Part shown: positions 1-5,428 of the stretch, one piece after another | Layout of the letters: every line of letters starts with the position of its first letter | Position numbering within the stretch: the stretch's first letter is position 1 | IMG/VR virus record: IMGVR_UViG_2778261035_000008 | Coordinates: 1 to 5,428 of that record | DNA: 5,428 nt | Source: a virus | Lineage: Duplodnaviria > Heunggongvirae > Uroviricota > Caudoviricetes | Direction: 5' to 3' (one strand) | Made by a program: the position numbers and the translations under genes | Notes under the pieces: generated by a model | The model's input: the letters and a program-made list of their open reading frames with translations, nothing else | Database searches by the model: none | Told to the model about the DNA's origin: nothing

Positions 1-239
1 ACCGGTTTTGACTGGTCAGCGATGGCCTGCAACGATGCCGCCAGCGTGCCTTTTTTACCGGCCTTTGCAATTGCGCTTTGCACATTGGTAATCAGCACCG
101 GTTTATTGAGGGGGAAGGTTTCCGCATCCGCATCGCTGGCCGTGCAGACCATGCCGACAATGGCAGTGGATACGGTGGAAATGACGCGGGTGCCGTCGTT
201 AATCTCCAGCACCTGCACGCCATGATGATAGTCACTCAT
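1..239 (-). CDS. FI: Contractile tail sheath protein, N-terminal 79 codons (P2 gpFI-like); gene continues beyond the window's left edge
   Basis: Reverse complement from ATG (239..237) reads [79 protein letters not shown] with no stop before position 1. I recognise this as the N-terminus of P2-type tail sheath FI (recalled from memory, not searched). A GGAG Shine-Dalgarno (revcomp of 248..251) sits 8 nt upstream of the ATG. The + strand ORFs 22..225 and 78..293 are antisense shadows of this gene. Confidence 0.85.
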
Positions 240-827
240 CCGTTTAACTCCGTGGTTAATGGGTGCAACTATTTTCTGTTGGGCAGTGCATGAGACGCTA
301 TTTGACCTGACTGGTCAGTGGATGAAACAACAGATAAAGAAAAGGCGGGCAATCAGATTGCCTGTCCTGATTTGTACTCACTCATTTTCCGACTGACAGT
401 TTACATAGCCAAAACGCTATCAAATCTGACAGCCTGCTTGAGCGAGGAGCAGGCCTTGCAACTTCGTAGGCGCACTTTTAATATTTTTATGGGCAGTTAA
501 AAAACTTGTGGTATAAAGGCTCACCTACTGAACGTACTGTTGAATGAAGCGGGGTCTACAAGAATGAAAAAAATACGAACAGAACCGCCAACCGTTTCGG
601 TGAATAAATTAGTTTACGCTTATCCTGCACACTATTAATTTTAGAATCAAAAAAGACCAACTAAAATACAAAATAATTTTTACAGTGATTAGTTAATCAT
701 GAAAATATAAAGATAATCAAAACCACCACTTAAATTAACTGACACCCAAGCCTTGCAATGAAGATAACCCCCCGCAGCAGCGAGGTAATATCTTTTGTAT
801 CTATGTCGCAAAATATCACTCTTTTAC

Positions 828-856
828 TTGCTTAGAGCCCTCATAAGAGATACTTT
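828..856 (+). promoter_or_regulatory. Candidate sigma70-type promoter for the cargo gene (-35 TTGCTT 828..833, 17-nt spacer, -10 TACTTT 851..856)
   Basis: Read by eye in the AT-rich leader about 40 nt upstream of the ATG at 893. The -10 matches the consensus only at the T, A and final T positions. AT-rich DNA produces many such matches by chance. Confidence 0.2.
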
Positions 857-892
857 ATCAATCTTTATTCACGAACATCTAAATGGCAAATC

Positions 893-3055
893 ATGATAAA
901 CAATATAGTTATAAATAAAGTTGCAAGTTATAAGTCAAAATCAGAGTTAAATACTGATAAAAAAGTAAATATTATTTATGGTTTAAATGGAACAGGTAAA
1001 AGCACCTTCTCCAATTATTTCTATGACATAGATAATAAAAAATATGAGAATTGTTCCCACTCAGGTGAGTATGATGAAATCCTTGTCTACAATCAGAAAT
1101 TCATTCAGGATAACTTTTATGCAAAGGATTCTTTAAATGGAATATTTAGCTTGTCCAAGGAAAATAAAGAAGCAAAAGAAAAGGTTGAGAGCCTCACATT
1201 AGAAATAATAAAACTATCTGATGAAAAACGTGAAATTGAAAAAGAAATAACAGCACAAAACACCTCTGTTTCTGATGCAAAAAACAAAGCTCAAAATAAA
1301 ACATGGGAAATAAAAACCAACTATTCAGGTGGTGACAGGGTCCTTGAATTTTGTTTATTAGGAAAAATGGGAAGTAAAGAATCATTATTCAACCATCTTT
1401 GCTCCATTCCTTTACCTAATTCTAAGCCATCAAAAAACATCTCTGACTTAAAAGAAGAAGCAAGTGCGATTGATGGCGAAACAGCAATAAAATACAGCAT
1501 GCTAGAGGAGATTCACACCATCGTATTATCACTCGATGAAGTGGAATTACTTCAGAATATAATTGTGGGAAGTACAGATAGTCCCGTTTCATATCTTATA
1601 AGTAAGCTTCAGAACTCTGATTGGGTAAATGAAGGACTAAAATACTTAGAACAAACAGGAGATTCTCAGTGTCCATTTTGTCAATCTCAAATTATAACTG
1701 AAAACTTGGTTCAGCATATTCGCAACTATTTCGATGAAACGTATCAAGATAGTGTAAAAAAAATAAAATCCATTCAGACCAAATATAACTCATTGATTGA
1801 CAGTATTCCTTCACTGGATACTTATAAAGAATGCAAACTATCTTCAAATTATATAGTTCAATTAAGCGACTGTTACGCCCTGTTAAGAAAAGATACAGAG
1901 AGCAACTTGGAACTAATAAAGCAGAAGGTAACAAACCCCAGTACCCCAGTAACGCTGAATGATATATCCAACTCTGTTGATAACTTCAATTCATTAGTGA
2001 AATTAGTGAACAATGAAATAACCACACATAACTCAAAAATAGACAATGCAAAACACGAGCTAGAAAAAATAAAAATTTCTTTCTGGCAGCTCTTAAGGTA
2101 TGAGTATGATCAAACAATTTTAAATTTCAACGAAATAAAAGAAAGTGCAAACATTATAACAATCAGAAAAAACACCGCCAAAGATGAAAAAGAAGCAAAA
2201 ATAAAGACTAAAGATGCAGAACGGATTGAATATCAGAAATCAACAGTAAATATAGATGATGCCGTATTCAACATAAACCAAGGTTTAAATGACATCGGAA
2301 TCACAGATTTTCACATCGCAAAATATGAGGATACTCTTTATCGCATAGTACGTAATGACTCTAATTCTAAAGTATTCTCATCATTAAGTGAAGGCGAAAA
2401 AATGATTATCAGCCTTTTGTATTTTAGAGAACTATTCAGAGGTAAAAGAGTCGCCACCGAGGGTAAAACCAAAAAAATAGCTATAATCGATGATCCTGTA
2501 TCAAGCTTATCACATATTTTTGTCTACAATATAGGCCAACTAATAAAAAATGATTTCTTTAACTCTAATGAAATAGAGCAGATATTTGTTTTATCTCACA
2601 GCTTATATTTTTTCTATGAACTCGCTGATGCAAACCATGAAAGAAGAAAAGAAAATCAAAATTTATTTAGGCTTTCTAAAAACTCCAACGGCAGTTCAAT
2701 TATCTTAATGAAATACGATGAAATACAAAATGACTACCAGTCTTATTGGTCAGTAATCAATGATGACAAACAGCCTCCTGCCTTAATTGCTAACTGCATG
2801 AGAAATATAATTGAATACTTTTTCAATTTTGTACAAAAAGCAGATTTAAGCAATGTCACTCAAAAACCAGAGTTAAAAAAACCACGATTTCAATCCTTTA
2901 TTCGCTACATAAACAGAGAGTCACACTCATTAGGACAGAACATTTTTGACTTCAAGGAATTTAACTATAATGATTTCAAAGAAGGGCTTAGATTAGTGTT
3001 TGAGCACACAGGTTATTCTGCACATTATAAAAAAATGGCAAAAATAAAGAACTAA
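893..3055 (+). CDS. ABC-type ATPase with a CxxC-containing insertion and putative C-terminal nuclease domain; candidate RloC/PrrC-like anticodon nuclease (anti-phage abortive-infection protein). Function is inferred.
   Basis: 720-codon ORF, ATG 893 to TAA 3053..3055. An in-frame stop at 833..835 and no alternative start codon between make 893 the only possible start; no canonical SD. Motifs read from the translation: Walker A GLNGTGKST (aa 30-38, nt 980..1006); CPFC (aa 260-263, nt 1670..1681) in a Lys/Glu-rich region between Walker A and signature; signature-like LSEGEK (aa 498-503, nt 2384..2401); Walker B KIAIIDD(P) (aa 528-535, nt 2474..2497); H-loop-like VLSHS (His569, nt 2597..2599). 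C-terminal domain (aa ~585-720) has R637-x3-E641 (nt 2801..2815) and H678 (nt 2924..2926). Confidence that this is a real gene is ~0.9; confidence in the RloC/PrrC-like call is ~0.45. Confidence 0.8.
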   Translation: MINNIVINKVASYKSKSELNTDKKVNIIYGLNGTGKSTFSNYFYDIDNKKYENCSHSGEYDEILVYNQKFIQDNFYAKDSLNGIFSLSKENKEAKEKVESLTLEIIKLSDEKREIEKEITAQNTSVSDAKNKAQNKTWEIKTNYSGGDRVLEFCLLGKMGSKESLFNHLCSIPLPNSKPSKNISDLKEEASAIDGETAIKYSMLEEIHTIVLSLDEVELLQNIIVGSTDSPVSYLISKLQNSDWVNEGLKYLEQTGDSQCPFCQSQIITENLVQHIRNYFDETYQDSVKKIKSIQTKYNSLIDSIPSLDTYKECKLSSNYIVQLSDCYALLRKDTESNLELIKQKVTNPSTPVTLNDISNSVDNFNSLVKLVNNEITTHNSKIDNAKHELEKIKISFWQLLRYEYDQTILNFNEIKESANIITIRKNTAKDEKEAKIKTKDAERIEYQKSTVNIDDAVFNINQGLNDIGITDFHIAKYEDTLYRIVRNDSNSKVFSSLSEGEKMIISLLYFRELFRGKRVATEGKTKKIAIIDDPVSSLSHIFVYNIGQLIKNDFFNSNEIEQIFVLSHSLYFFYELADANHERRKENQNLFRLSKNSNGSSIILMKYDEIQNDYQSYWSVINDDKQPPALIANCMRNIIEYFFNFVQKADLSNVTQKPELKKPRFQSFIRYINRESHSLGQNIFDFKEFNYNDFKEGLRLVFEHTGYSAHYKKMAKIKN

Positions 3056-3100
3056 AAAACCGCAGTATATGGTTCAATGACTGAATTAATTATTCATCAC

Positions 3101-3131
3101 AGCCTATCAGGGATTTTATTATTGATAGGCT
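3101..3131. terminator. Stem-loop between convergent genes; possible intrinsic terminator for the cargo gene
   Basis: Perfect 9-bp inverted repeat AGCCTATCA (3101..3109) / TGATAGGCT (3123..3131) with a 13-nt loop, 46 nt after the cargo stop codon, followed on the + strand by ATTTATCTTATATAT. The tail is T-rich but not a clean T-run. Confidence 0.4.
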
Positions 3132-3200
3132 ATTTATCTTATATATCACCATGTTCGCATATCTGCTATTGCTTGCCCCTCCCGCTATCTAGCATGATCT

Positions 3201-3236
3201 TGACAGCTTCCGCTCGTGGCACAGAGCGGACTGTCA
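3201..3236 (-). terminator. Imperfect GC-rich hairpin downstream of gene G; possible terminator of the H-G tail fiber transcript
   Basis: TGACAG-CTTC-CGCTC / GAGCG-GA-CTGTCA around a GTGGCACA loop, about 60 nt past the G stop on the minus strand. No clear U-tract on the minus strand, so the terminator role is uncertain. Confidence 0.25.
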
Positions 3237-3292
3237 GATTAGGCTTTACTCTGTGCCATAGATATGTAAGCTCACACCAGAGCTCATACAAC

Positions 3293-3820
3293 TTATTGCG
3301 GCATTTCCGGCCATTCAGGATTTGCAGGATCCACACGACTGACCAGAACGCTGTAGCGTTCCCATGCTTCCAGTCGGCTGCGCTCCTCATCTGTTGCCAT
3401 GTTCAGTCTGACCGCGCGCTCCAGCAGCAAAATCACGGATTCAGCTTCGGAAAGTAAAGTTGCCTTTTGTGATTCTGCCAGTTGATGCTGTTCGTCTGCC
3501 GTATAAATCCGCTTAATCACGGCACCATCCTTAAACATCCATTTACCTGAGTCATCAGCACGTCGGTTGGCGGTAATATCAGGAACCTCGACAACGCTAA
3601 AACCTTCAGGGTTAAGCGTTGAAGCATCTCTGGTGATGCCGACAATTATATTATTCTCGTCGTAAACAATCTTTATCGTGTCTTCCTGAAAATTACTTAC
3701 TTCCTCATACCAGTTTTTTCCGTCTTCAGACCATAACCAGATAACATCAAAATTTTTTGTCAGTTGATATTGAGCAACAGTTTTGGGATTACCCGCAGTA
3801 ATATTTTTTAAATGCTGCAT
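3293..3820 (-). CDS. G: Tail fiber assembly (chaperone) protein, P2 gpG-like
   Basis: 175-codon ORF, ATG at 3820..3818 and TAA at 3295..3293. Translation [41 protein letters not shown]...[13 protein letters not shown] is recognised as P2 gpG-type tail fiber assembly protein (from memory). The start lies 3 nt after the H stop, with an AGGTG SD inside the last H codons, which is typical H-G coupling. Confidence 0.9.
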
Positions 3821-3823
3821 AAA

Positions 3824-5428
3824 TTACACCTGTGCGACGTTATACCATGTGCCATTGATGTATTTTTGTATTGGTCTGAATACTGCGGGGTCATCACCAT
3901 CGACTTCACCGACAATACCAAGCCCTGTAATTACATGGCCTGATTTTTCATACATCACACCTTTTTGCATAGTCTGAACAATACGTGTGCCCAGGCGAAT
4001 ATCTCGTACATAGCGAGAATCCGATTCAGCTTTGGTATATGCACCAACATCTCCCGCAGAGGGTTTGCGGGTTGTGGTGTAAAACTCTGACCAGTCAGCC
4101 TCAAATCCATAACCATCACGTGCTGAACGATAAAAAATACCGCCGTTCTTATAATTCACACGGAACTGTACGGCAGGGCAACTCCCCGCATTCATATTGA
4201 AGTGGAGGATTAATGTCGATGCACCGCTGATATCTGCATCATAAACACCGCTATTCCAGTTCCAGCCAACAGCTTTATCATTTGCAACCCTGCTTCCTGT
4301 TTGCCCTAAAGCAAATGCAGGCTGCTGGTTTTTCGTGTTGTAGTCTCGTCGCCAGCCGGGGGCATAAGCATCACCATGATTAATATAAGTGAATTGAGCG
4401 TTAGTGGTGCCGCCTCCGGTAGAAGTGCTTGGTGTTGTTACACGGATGGTCATGGCACCTTTATTACCCATAACCTCAATAACGCAACCTGCAAGATGAA
4501 TAGTTCCACAGCCAGTATCGGTAATAATTTTATTATTGCCGTATGACCATGAACATTTGCACATCCAGTACGGATGATTAAATGCACCACGGGAATCCAG
4601 CCATTCAATAAACTGAGCGGTTGTCCAGTTTCCGGCTTCAGTGCTCAAAGCGCCGCTATAAGCACGACAGGCACCGATATTTTTCGTGAAGGTATCCTTT
4701 CCCGGAATATCCGCACCGTTCTGATCTTTCTGAAGACGTTTTTCAGCATTGTCATAGGCAGACTTCACCGCTTTTGGTGTTGCGGCCAGCGTTTCCGAAT
4801 CACTGTTGGTGGCGCTACTGAGCTGGACAAGGCCTTTCCGCGCCGTGGTGGCATCCTGCGCAGTGTATTTCCCGTTAGCAAGGTCATACGCTGTCTTAAC
4901 CGCCTTTGGAGTTGCTGCAAGCGTTTCAGAATCGCTGTTGGTGGCGCTACTGAGCTGGACAAGGCCTTTTCGCGTTGTGGTGGCGTCCTGTGCAGTGTAT
5001 TTCCCGTTAGCAAGGTCATATGCTGCCTTTACCGCTTTCGGCGTTGCGGCCAGTGTTTCAGACGTGCTGTTGGTCGCACTGCTTAACTGAGTAAAACCTT
5101 TTGCGGTCAGCGAGGCGTCAGGGTGACGTCGTGACTGTTCATGTTCTGCAATTTTGTCATCAACGTAATCCTGCGTTGCCATCACCGTTGTGGTGTCAAT
5201 GGTCAGCTCCACTGAGGCCACACTGCTGACGATGATGACCATGCGGCAGGTCTGCGAACGCCCTGAGCCTTCGGCAAGGGCTGGCTTATAACTTTCGGCC
5301 ATGTTCGCCACGGCAATTAACGTTCCCGCATCATCGTACAGGCCAAGCTCTCGCATCCAGAAACCGCCCACCTCCGGCGGAATAACCAGCTCTGCGATAA
5401 TATAATTACTGTTTCGTTTGTCCTGGCT
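3824..5428 (-). CDS. H: Tail fiber protein (P2 gpH-like N-terminal region, divergent C-terminal receptor-binding region); 5' end lies beyond the window's right edge
   Basis: Minus-strand frame is open from the window edge (5428) to TAA at 3826..3824. The ORF track's M at 5371 is a GTG codon; the frame upstream reads SQDKRNSNYIIAELVIPPEV without a stop, so the true start is outside the window. The part reading ...GGFWMRELGLYDDAGTLIAVANMAESYKPALAEGSGR...TIDTTTVMATQDYVDDKIAEH matches P2 gpH as I recall it, followed by tandem fiber repeats (SSATNSxSETLAATPKAVKxAYD) and a distinct C-terminal domain. Confidence 0.9.
   Translation of the reverse strand, partial: SQDKRNSNYIIAELVIPPEVGGFWMRELGLYDDAGTLIAVANMAESYKPALAEGSGRSQTCRMVIIVSSVASVELTIDTTTVMATQDYVDDKIAEHEQSRRHPDASLTAKGFTQLSSATNSTSETLAATPKAVKAAYDLANGKYTAQDATTTRKGLVQLSSATNSDSETLAATPKAVKTAYDLANGKYTAQDATTARKGLVQLSSATNSDSETLAATPKAVKSAYDNAEKRLQKDQNGADIPGKDTFTKNIGACRAYSGALSTEAGNWTTAQFIEWLDSRGAFNHPYWMCKCSWSYGNNKIITDTGCGTIHLAGCVIEVMGNKGAMTIRVTTPSTSTGGGTTNAQFTYINHGDAYAPGWRRDYNTKNQQPAFALGQTGSRVANDKAVGWNWNSGVYDADISGASTLILHFNMNAGSCPAVQFRVNYKNGGIFYRSARDGYGFEADWSEFYTTTRKPSAGDVGAYTKAESDSRYVRDIRLGTRIVQTMQKGVMYEKSGHVITGLGIVGEVDGDDPAVFRPIQKYINGTWYNVAQV
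4745..5101. repeat. Direct tandem repeat, 132-bp period, about 2.7 copies, inside tail fiber gene H (encodes 44-aa fiber repeats)
   Basis: Copies at 4970..5101, 4838..4969 and a partial copy at 4745..4837. The 132-bp period was verified by matching anchors (ACCGCTTTTGGTGT at 4767..4780 vs ACCGCCTTTGGAGT at 4899..4912 vs ACCGCTTTCGGCGT at 5031..5044). The protein repeats are KGFTQLSSATNSTSETLAATPKAVKAAYDLANGKYTAQDATTTR / KGLVQLSSATNSDSETLAATPKAVKTAYDLANGKYTAQDATTAR / KGLVQLSSATNSDSETLAATPKAVKSAYD. Confidence 0.85.

Follow-up and report, generated by a model that had tools for sequence, protein, structure and literature searches.

An AT-rich cassette carrying a predicted RloC-type gene in the Z/fun slot of a P2-like prophage

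What is a block of strongly AT-rich DNA doing between the tail genes of a P2-like prophage, where has it come from, and what may it do for its carrier? These questions are raised by a 5,428-nucleotide stretch of viral DNA (Caudoviricetes; positions 1 to 5,428 of IMG/VR record IMGVR_UViG_2778261035_000008), hereafter called the window. The window is a segment of a P2-like (Peduovirus) prophage, and the block lies between the genes G and FI in the Z/fun hotspot, a variable locus where P2-like phages are known to carry accessory and anti-phage genes (PMC13586616; PMC9122126). The original prediction, made from the letters alone, had described the block as recently acquired foreign cargo. We find a mobile cassette whose single gene has the sequence features of the anticodon nuclease RloC, and whose borders carry conserved palindromes that recur in fused form in other genomic islands, prophages and plasmids.

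The AT-rich island and its origin

The GC profile of the window was calculated in sliding 200-bp windows. GC content is 0.44-0.57 at first, only 0.27-0.37 from about 500 to about 3150, and 0.44-0.58 beyond. A maximum-likelihood fit with two changepoints placed the island at 476..3146, with a GC content of 0.316 inside and 0.489 outside. The gain in log-likelihood over a homogeneous model was 84.5, and the corresponding 2x2 comparison gave a chi-square of 167 (p 3e-38), which bears out the AT-rich block in a GC-balanced backbone that had been described by eye. The edges given for it were approximately right but lie about 25-65 bp inside the true ones, as judged by the changepoints at 476 and 3146 and by the homology breakpoints given below; the GC content of the interval first proposed, 500..3135, is 0.318. 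In 50-bp windows the composition shifts within a few tens of bp at either end, as abruptly as had been stated. The bias extends to the codons of the cargo open reading frame (ORF). Its GC content at the first, second and third positions is 0.37/0.28/0.29, compared with 0.53/0.50/0.46 in H and 0.56/0.36/0.42 in G, and its third-position value of 0.29 lies below the 0.42-0.58 of the flanking genes. Residue counts of the encoded protein (Lys 10.1%, Ile 9.9%, Ser 9.9%, Asn 9.3%, Glu 7.9%) agree with the announced dominance of Asn, Lys, Ile and Glu, Ser being equally high.

The window was compared with eight P2-like loci, namely those of P2, Wphi, 12474III, pro147, R18C and three E. coli prophages. 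Homology runs from position 1 to 450-467 and resumes at 3199-3217, with 82-97% identity in the flanks and none between. The alignment against other P2-like phages that had been suggested as a check therefore yields both the boundaries and the identity of the other occupants of the slot. These comprise fun(Z), a SMEK-domain protein, orf44, a metal-binding protein, several small ORFs, an HNH endonuclease, a Sll1717-type ATPase and a 'lysogenic protein', so that the nine loci hold nine different contents between shared flanks; in phage 899 the slot holds two genes. The claim that the block is foreign cargo is upheld by these unrelated genes at the same position. Compared with P2 fun(Z) and other Z/fun cargo (Nilsson et al. 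2004; Christie & Calendar 2016; PMC13586616), the present cassette has the same G-FI position, the same conserved boundary sequences and the same orientation opposite to the late genes. It is likewise AT-rich (33% GC for the P2 cargo) and likewise accessory, with a presumed role of the phage-exclusion type, but its gene content is unrelated to that of P2. From its absence in other P2-like phages we infer that the cargo is nonessential.

The cargo gene is rare. A search of 5426 complete E. coli genomes recovered it from only 2, each time in the G-FI slot and with 99% identity; more than 1000 E. coli genomes share the flanks without it. This excludes a core gene of the P2-like phages, the finding that would have spoken against an island. 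In all 18 contigs (18/18) encoding a 99%-identical protein, the gene lies between FI and G.

Relatives at 82-90% protein identity are located outside the P2 slot. By blastn, window positions 439-3171 match a Raoultella locus (L010, 7536-10279) at 88.0% and positions 439-3170 match that of another enterobacterium (L012, 4470-7204) at 89.0%; shorter matches were obtained with L011 (784-3160, 87.5%) and with a metagenomic island, L013 (555-3135, 83.1%). Since homology to the non-P2 copies spans the leader, the gene and the terminator, these together form the moving unit, a mobile cassette at 439..3171 on the + strand. The Raoultella copy lies in an island between hypF and the nor genes, where it adjoins SymE and DUF6602 genes. 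Other relatives are in an enterobacterial island beside Hcp genes of a type VI secretion system (T6SS), in an integrase-bearing island with a TIR protein and in an island beside a SMEK/TPR protein. More distant copies (66-75% DNA identity) are carried by conjugative plasmids of Yersinia, Rahnella, Pseudoalteromonas and Lactococcus. Moreover, nine phage records encode RloC-like proteins of 23-33% identity, including Streptococcus prophages in which the gene is annotated as an anticodon nuclease (ACNase). Together these data support the view that the island is horizontally acquired cargo.

How recent the acquisition was is a separate matter. The gene has a GC content of about 31% in every host examined, including Raoultella, where its flanks reach 57-63%; AT-richness is therefore no clock. 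All nine slot cargoes are AT-rich (32-41% GC, against 49-51% in the flanks), and low GC is for this reason better regarded as a standing property of the cargo class. Of the claim 'recently acquired', the foreign origin stands, and 'recent' rests on the rarity of the gene and the near-identity of its copies rather than on composition. The same two observations fit another explanation, in which low GC is locally selected in the slot, for H-NS silencing or for insulating two late operons, and the gene is an old resident; the composition would then be maintained and not decaying. We regard this as very improbable. Over 99.9% of E. coli genomes lack the gene, including more than 1000 that share the flanks, the slot contents are non-homologous between phages, and an identical cassette is found in unrelated islands. 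These three points rule out local selection as a full alternative; at most it could help to explain why the composition stays AT-rich.

Several further observations concern the company in which these genes are found. The SMEK-domain protein is the sole Z/fun cargo in phage 12474III (L003, 1058-2140), and a SMEK-domain protein also adjoins the RloC-like gene of the metagenomic island L013 (8614-10356); from this recurrence, one small gene pool seems to circulate among the slot and the islands. Enterobacter phage ENT4, whose RloC-like gene is 33% identical, was considered as a further occupant of the same slot and rejected, as no G or FI homologues flank the gene. The ENT4 gene (L021, 3300-5700) nevertheless forms a sharp AT-rich island of its own, of about 0.31 GC in a 0.55 backbone. 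In L012, which carries the 90%-identical RloC-like gene, positions 9925-13089 encode a TIR-domain protein followed by a tyrosine integrase and two large ORFs without Pfam domains (513 and >668 amino acids). On the face of it, this arrangement resembles the three-gene core of the Gamma-Mobile-Trio elements (bioRxiv 10.1101/2023.03.28.534373).

The cargo gene and its predicted product

The only substantial ORF of the island, at 893..3055 on the + strand, encodes a protein of 720 amino acids. It matches Pfam AAA_13 over residues 10-699 (E 2.9e-107) and, in PADLOC, the model PDLC04886 of the single-gene candidate system PDC-S06 over residues 1-717 of 720 (E 1.4e-254), along with six further PDC-S06 models; LmuB and AriA give weaker PADLOC matches. 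Homologues at 57-59% identity are named 'wobble nucleotide-excising tRNase' or 'Translation-disabling ACNase RloC' by their sources, and the family counts 2892 representatives at E<=1e-3.

RloC proteins have been defined as 658-897 residues long, about twice the length of PrrC, with PrrC-like ABC ATPase motifs, an ATPase domain split by a coiled-coil insert with a central CX2C zinc hook, and a C-terminal Arg-X3-Glu-X36-52-His triad in which Ser often precedes the His (PMC2610378). The length of the cargo protein falls within this range. Its ABC motifs are a Walker A (GLNGTGKST, 30-38), LSEGEK (498-503), IIDDP (531-535, with the two Asp at 533-534) and a linchpin His, H569. The CX2C motif is C260-PF-C263, which predicts a zinc hook, and the triad reads R637-NII-E641, then 36 residues, then S677-H678. 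In a set of 118 relatives reaching down to 28% identity, G30, N32, K36, C260, P261, C263, S499, E500, E502, D533, D534, H569 and R637 are invariant, and E641, S677 and H678 are conserved in at least 90%. By the published sequence criteria and the names of its homologues, the cargo gene is thus assigned to the RloC family, and nuclease activity is predicted for its product.

A structural model was calculated with AlphaFold2 (AF2) from the 118-sequence alignment. Its mean predicted local distance difference test score (pLDDT) is 88.9; an earlier model built on 33 close homologues had poor ATPase heads (pLDDT 69.7). Long helices at 89-144 and at 282-449 flank the CPFC loop with pLDDT above 90. 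The best PDB matches of the model by Foldseek are Rad50 (E 6.7e-9), SMC heads and Lamassu LmuB. This likeness of the fold to Rad50 points to RloC rather than PrrC.

Comparison with known systems leads to the same assignment. The studied RloC proteins are GkaRloC of Geobacillus kaustophilus and AbaRloC of Acinetobacter baylyi (Davidov & Kaufmann 2008; Klaiman et al. 2012/2014); the cargo protein shares with them its size class, the ABC motifs and the CxxC insert, a likeness judged from published features. The zinc hook is at the apex of the insert in both cases (CPFC 260-263 here, Cys291 in GkaRloC), and R637, E641 and H678 correspond to R692, E696 and H737 of GkaRloC. Like those rloC genes, the cargo gene stands alone without linkage to restriction-modification (R-M) genes and has poor translation-initiation signals. 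It differs in its shorter product (AbaRloC has 826 residues and the GkaRloC triad lies near residue 740) and in being carried in a P2-like prophage hotspot. PrrC, known from the prr locus of E. coli CT196, has in common with the cargo protein an ABC-type NTPase N-domain, a C-terminal nuclease, the Arg/Glu/His triad and an abortive-infection logic in which translation is shut off upon phage attack. However, PrrC proteins have 341-416 residues, lack the coiled-coil/zinc-hook insert and are always encoded in a silencing type Ic hsd locus. Identification as PrrC was rejected on size, insert and R-M linkage, the neighbours here being the phage genes FI and G. Rad50/SbcC, LmuB, PtuA (Septu/retron) and AriA (PARIS) likewise combine an ABC head with a coiled-coil insertion and share the logic of an ATPase-gated nuclease. 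In these Rad50/SMC-like systems the nuclease is a separate protein or domain (Mre11/SbcD, LmuA, PtuB, AriB), whereas in the cargo protein a putative PrrC/RloC-type nuclease is fused at the C-terminus.

Taking together the composition, boundaries, mobility and slot variability observed for the cassette and the motifs and predicted fold of its protein, we consider it probable that the cassette is a moron of the Z/fun hotspot carrying an RloC-type abortive-infection enzyme, whose expression, tRNA cleavage, trigger and anti-phage activity are all predicted. It would form a self-contained unit in which a single gene is preceded by a leader with promoter and followed by a terminator. Its neighbours are, on one side, the late tail-fibre operon (H, G) with its G end and, on the other, the late promoter that serves the FI operon; the late genes are read in the opposite direction. 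Among the traits of morons, deviant composition and a terminator hairpin are present, and promoter matches are not above chance. In the lysogen, the protein would be made at a low level from its own signals, and the Rad50-like ATPase with its zinc-hook switch would hold the nuclease inactive. If an infecting phage caused DNA breakage or degradation, or knocked out restriction, ATP hydrolysis would set in and turn on the C-terminal nuclease. The Arg/Glu/His site would then cut tRNA anticodon loops, excising the wobble nucleotide; translation would halt, the infected cell would release no phage, and the clonal hosts of the prophage would be protected. Activation of RloC has been connected with DNA, the ATPase, the zinc hook and inducers of double-strand breaks (PMC3458546, PMC3874168). 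Only GkaRloC and AbaRloC are known to excise the wobble nucleotide in a manner regulated by DNA, zinc and the hydrolysis of ATP (PMC2610378, PMC3458546, PMC3874168).

The non-coding leader (453..892, + strand) was delimited in a five-locus alignment, and its proximal 130 nt or so (about 760-892) is conserved in all five contexts; a promoter and a weak ribosome-binding site presumably lie within this segment. The ribosome-binding site is poor, in keeping with the weak translation-initiation signals noted for rloC genes generally. The gene is followed by a probable intrinsic terminator at 3101..3146 on the + strand, which comprises AGCCUAUCAG...UUGAUAGGCU and then AUUUAUCUUAUAUAU. Its hairpin (3101-3131) has a folding energy of -13.3 kcal/mol (z -3.6 against shuffles) with a U-rich tail, and it probably ends transcription of the cargo gene. 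This terminator is kept in the non-P2 copies of the cassette and was not called by the consensus scan. Two small leader ORFs were considered and discarded: one of 24 codons at 564-638, taken as a possible second gene, is frameshifted by a 2-nt indel in homologues, and one of 40 amino acids on the - strand has no support. Rfam gave no match anywhere in the window, leader included.

A number of results weigh against the RloC assignment and the function proposed from it. NCBIfam gave no match to the cargo protein, and a phmmer search of the PDB with the single cargo sequence gave no hits; a profile of 33 sequences yielded marginal PDB matches, mostly to coiled-coil chains, with a few short P-loop stretches. 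The PADLOC model of PrrC recognizes only the P-loop region (residues 17-81, E 1e-5). The Foldseek matches cover the ATPase and coiled coil only, with no separate match of the C-terminal part to a solved HEPN or nuclease fold. In PADLOC, PDC-S06 is only a 'candidate' system, and the searchable literature holds no experiment on the cargo protein or on any PDC-S06 member. RloC itself appears in published lists of defence systems with the remark 'not tested' as regards phages, and the searchable literature yielded no phage-challenge test of RloC. Finally, a consensus scan detected no convincing sigma-70 promoter, promoter-like matches being no more frequent than expected from shuffled sequence, so that expression of the gene in the lysogen is only assumed.

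Some of these results would fit a protein of the same general build with another effector. The cargo product could be a Rad50/SMC-like DNA-sensing ATPase whose C-terminal domain cuts mRNA, rRNA or DNA or only signals, still within defence or abortive infection. The candidate status of PDC-S06 and the confinement of the structural matches to the ATPase and coiled coil are compatible with this, as are the weaker matches to LmuB and AriA, which are ATPases of systems with other effectors, and substrate specificity is not readable from sequence. We nevertheless judge it unlikely. The R-x3-E-x36-SH signature that defines RloC and PrrC is present and conserved among the relatives as described above, and each residue of the triad is needed for tRNase activity in Geobacillus RloC (PMC2610378).

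A tRNase could also serve the prophage itself, either as a DNA-damage-responsive brake on translation that acts on induction or host survival, or as an addiction-type stabiliser. In Acinetobacter, a double-strand-break inducer activates RloC without phage, and the authors weighed a role of RloC in thwarting lytic prophage development (PMC3874168). This possibility seems quite improbable here, since the cassette is found equally on conjugative plasmids and in islands beside TIR, SMEK, SymE and T6SS genes, and other P2-like phages carry further genes of a defence type in this slot. One of these, fun(Z) of P2, blocks growth of T5 according to the P2 annotation. An RloC-type abortive-infection enzyme remains the reading we prefer.

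Boundary palindromes and the fused element

What delimits a cassette that is found in such different settings? Both ends of the island carry a conserved palindrome. The left boundary element, of type 'hp2' (423..453), consists of AATCTGACAG followed by the palindrome GCCTGCT-tgagcgagg-AGCAGGC. The right element, of type 'hp1' (3200..3240), consists of the palindrome TCCGCTC-gtggcaca-GAGCGGA followed by CTGTCAGATT. In the window, the stem of the right palindrome is extended by TTGACAG/CTGTCAG, and palindrome plus CTGTCAGATT occupy 3209-3240. Segments 423-453 and 3212-3240 form an imperfect inverted repeat with a local score of 26, against 14.8 +/- 2.2 for shuffles, of which 1/2000 reached this value. 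Both elements are present in all the P2-like loci compared, and the breakpoints of homology fall at or close to them. On the left, homology to the P2-like loci ends at 450-467 and homology to the non-P2 copies begins at 439; on the right, P2-like homology resumes at 3199-3217. The inner part of each palindrome is retained in the non-P2 copies, and in two of these, L010 and L012, the right-type palindrome lacks CTGTCAGATT and is followed 18 nt later by a left-type palindrome.

The right element folds with -25.1 kcal/mol (z -3.1), and covariation in the hp1 stem was not above that of shuffles. For this reason we regard hp1 as a conserved DNA-sequence palindrome and claim no structured RNA. At 3218-3258 of the window, the right palindrome includes GGCACAGAG in its loop and 3' arm, and an inverted copy, CTCTGTGCC, is located 23 nt downstream within the conserved backbone. 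Pairing of GGCACAGAG with CTCTGTGCC would be an alternative to the palindrome's own stem and would exclude it; the second copy is mutated in pro147.

The arrangement hp1-18 nt-hp2 proved to be a recurrent, fused element of about 70 nt, which reads GTCCGCTC-TTGGCACR-GAGCGGAC, RAACTAACTGAGCNRAAG and GTCCGC-TGTGAGCGAANN-GCGGAC. A BLAST search with its consensus gave 2479 places, none of them annotated, spread over 1803 of 5426 E. coli genomes. It is also carried by 421 plasmids, from Klebsiella, Enterobacter and Pantoea among other hosts, and by two near-identical P2-like phage records. An exact 20-mer, TTGGCACRGAGCGGACRAAC, used as a probe for non-P2 junctions in one genome per species, had given two unrelated hits only and was abandoned as too strict a pattern. 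In phage 899, a fused element separates the two Z/fun-slot genes, with half elements at the slot ends. In E. coli EC102, it separates PARIS (ariAB) from Gabija (gajAB). In other islands, the element bounds PD-T7-1, an iron-uptake operon and a DUF2971/PDC-S31 gene; a plasmid copy bounds oxidoreductase genes, and RloC-like genes are also among the cassettes that the element delimits. When eight element loci were compared pairwise by BLAST, most homology blocks had an edge inside the element.

Copies were mapped in L030 (2598-2669), L024 (4996-5070 and 2153-2226), L025 (5004-5077), L031 (5001-5068), L026 (1711-1785, 4997-5071 and 6241-6266), L029 (3864-3937, 5998-6073 and 7063-7091), L028 (1830-1857, 5998-6072 and 7214-7243), L027 (5992-6067 and 11755-11782), L012 (7769-7843) and L010 (10851-10924). 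The arrays of CP4-44-like islands end in hp1 plus CTGTCAGATTAG, the same as in P2; it follows that two unrelated types of element share one 'frame' for their variable region. This junction was observed at 6241-6275 in L026, 11755-11791 in L027, 7063-7100 in L029 and 3209-3242 in the window. It adjoins G in P2-like phages, and genes for a yeeP-like GTPase and Ag43 in the CP4-44-like islands. Between the latter two genes, L026 (7390-7626) and L029 (8216-8452) match the Rfam IS102 small RNA (isrC-type, E about 8e-11), which confirms L026 and L029 as CP4-44-like islands.

The arrays invite comparison with integrons. As with integron cassettes and their attC sites, imperfect palindromes occupy the junctions of promoter-poor accessory cassettes in arrays, and cassette content is swapped between otherwise identical backbones. 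In contrast to integrons, there is no integrase ORF in the window and no integron integrase beside the arrays examined, and the genes of the arrays lie in either orientation. By eye, the boundary palindromes lack the RYYYAAC/GTTRRRY cores of attC. The fused element further differs from attC: it consists of two palindromes (GTCCGC...GCGGAC twice), the 18-nt spacer between them is conserved, and its arrays end in half elements. Integron attC sites and IS200/IS605-type ends were both set aside as analogies, as neither the linked enzyme nor the core motifs were found. A protein of 200 amino acids with only the catalytic domain of Phage_integrase (Pfam E 2e-17) is encoded inside element-bounded arrays, at 3418-4020 (-) of L028, in a Qin-like prophage region, and as a pseudogene at 3184-3786 (-) of L026, in a CP4-44-like island. 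It may be regarded as a candidate recombinase.

The element may be a recombination site, a portable stretch of short homology or an insulator. A tentative and rather doubtful interpretation is that the present cassette is one unit of an Enterobacterales-wide exchange system, in which units of the form hp2...genes...hp1 are swapped at the element and not through homology of the flanking genes. The fused hp1-18 nt-hp2 would then mark the junctions of neighbouring cassettes. Defence and accessory cassettes would be swapped among P2 Z/fun slots, CP4-44-like islands, other prophages and plasmids, either by a dedicated recombinase or by short-homology recombination. No description of such a system was found in the searchable literature, no paper there quotes the sequence strings of the element, and Rfam gave no match for the boundary or fused element. 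The title of a 2004 study of the Z/fun locus by Nilsson et al. reportedly invokes site-specific recombination, and that study may have described the P2 flanks. A 2026 survey of P2/P4 hotspots leaves unresolved the mechanism of exchange with unrelated elements and does not mention such repeats (PMC13586616).

The flanking backbone and the meaning of the cassette

The genes on either side of the cassette belong to the P2 backbone, and homology and Pfam agree with the names FI, G and H given to them in the original prediction. The 5' part of the tail-sheath gene FI (1..238, - strand; ATG at 238, reading MSDYHHGVQ...) has a GC content of 0.56, and its homologues include the FI genes annotated in P2 and Wphi, among others. 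The region of the late promoter pF, with its transcription start and activator-binding site, maps to approximately 263..340 (- strand) by homology to annotated P2, whose features at 763-765 and 808-836 of L002 were transferred through the alignment of window 1-450 with L002 501-955. Between pF and the cargo, the conserved backbone contains a terminator-like hairpin (344..366, both strands). It was recognized by consensus match only, as GGCGGGCAATCAGATTGCCTGTC on the + strand and as GGCAATCTGATTGCC followed by CGCCTTTTCT on the - strand. Downstream of the cassette, G (3293..3820, - strand) matches Pfam Caudo_TAP (E 1e-33) and is annotated as tail-fibre assembly in the homologous loci. The 3' part of the tail-fibre gene H (3824..5428, - strand) matches Phage_fiber_2, Phage_tail_fib and gp37_C, again with annotated homologues. 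Within H, positions 4700-5105 contain tandem imperfect repeats of about 130 nt, which correspond to the Phage_fiber_2 repeats (three Pfam stretches) and yield multiple offset BLAST hits between P2-like phages.

As originally stated, the island is ordinary: the family is known, as RloC and also as PDC-S06, the hotspot is known, and what is new is this member of its cargo. It is one more example of the rule that temperate phages carry AT-rich defence cargo at fixed hotspots. Two points may be added for the family. PDC-S06 gains a concrete reading as a putative RloC-type anticodon nuclease, and an enzyme predicted to be of this type rides a P2-like prophage. The boundary element is the more useful by-product, as it offers a specific site at which to ask how the cargo of P2/P4 hotspots is exchanged. 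If the element does prove to be the swap site of a cassette-exchange system, it would answer the question, left open by the survey of these hotspots (PMC13586616), of how their cargo is exchanged with unrelated elements.

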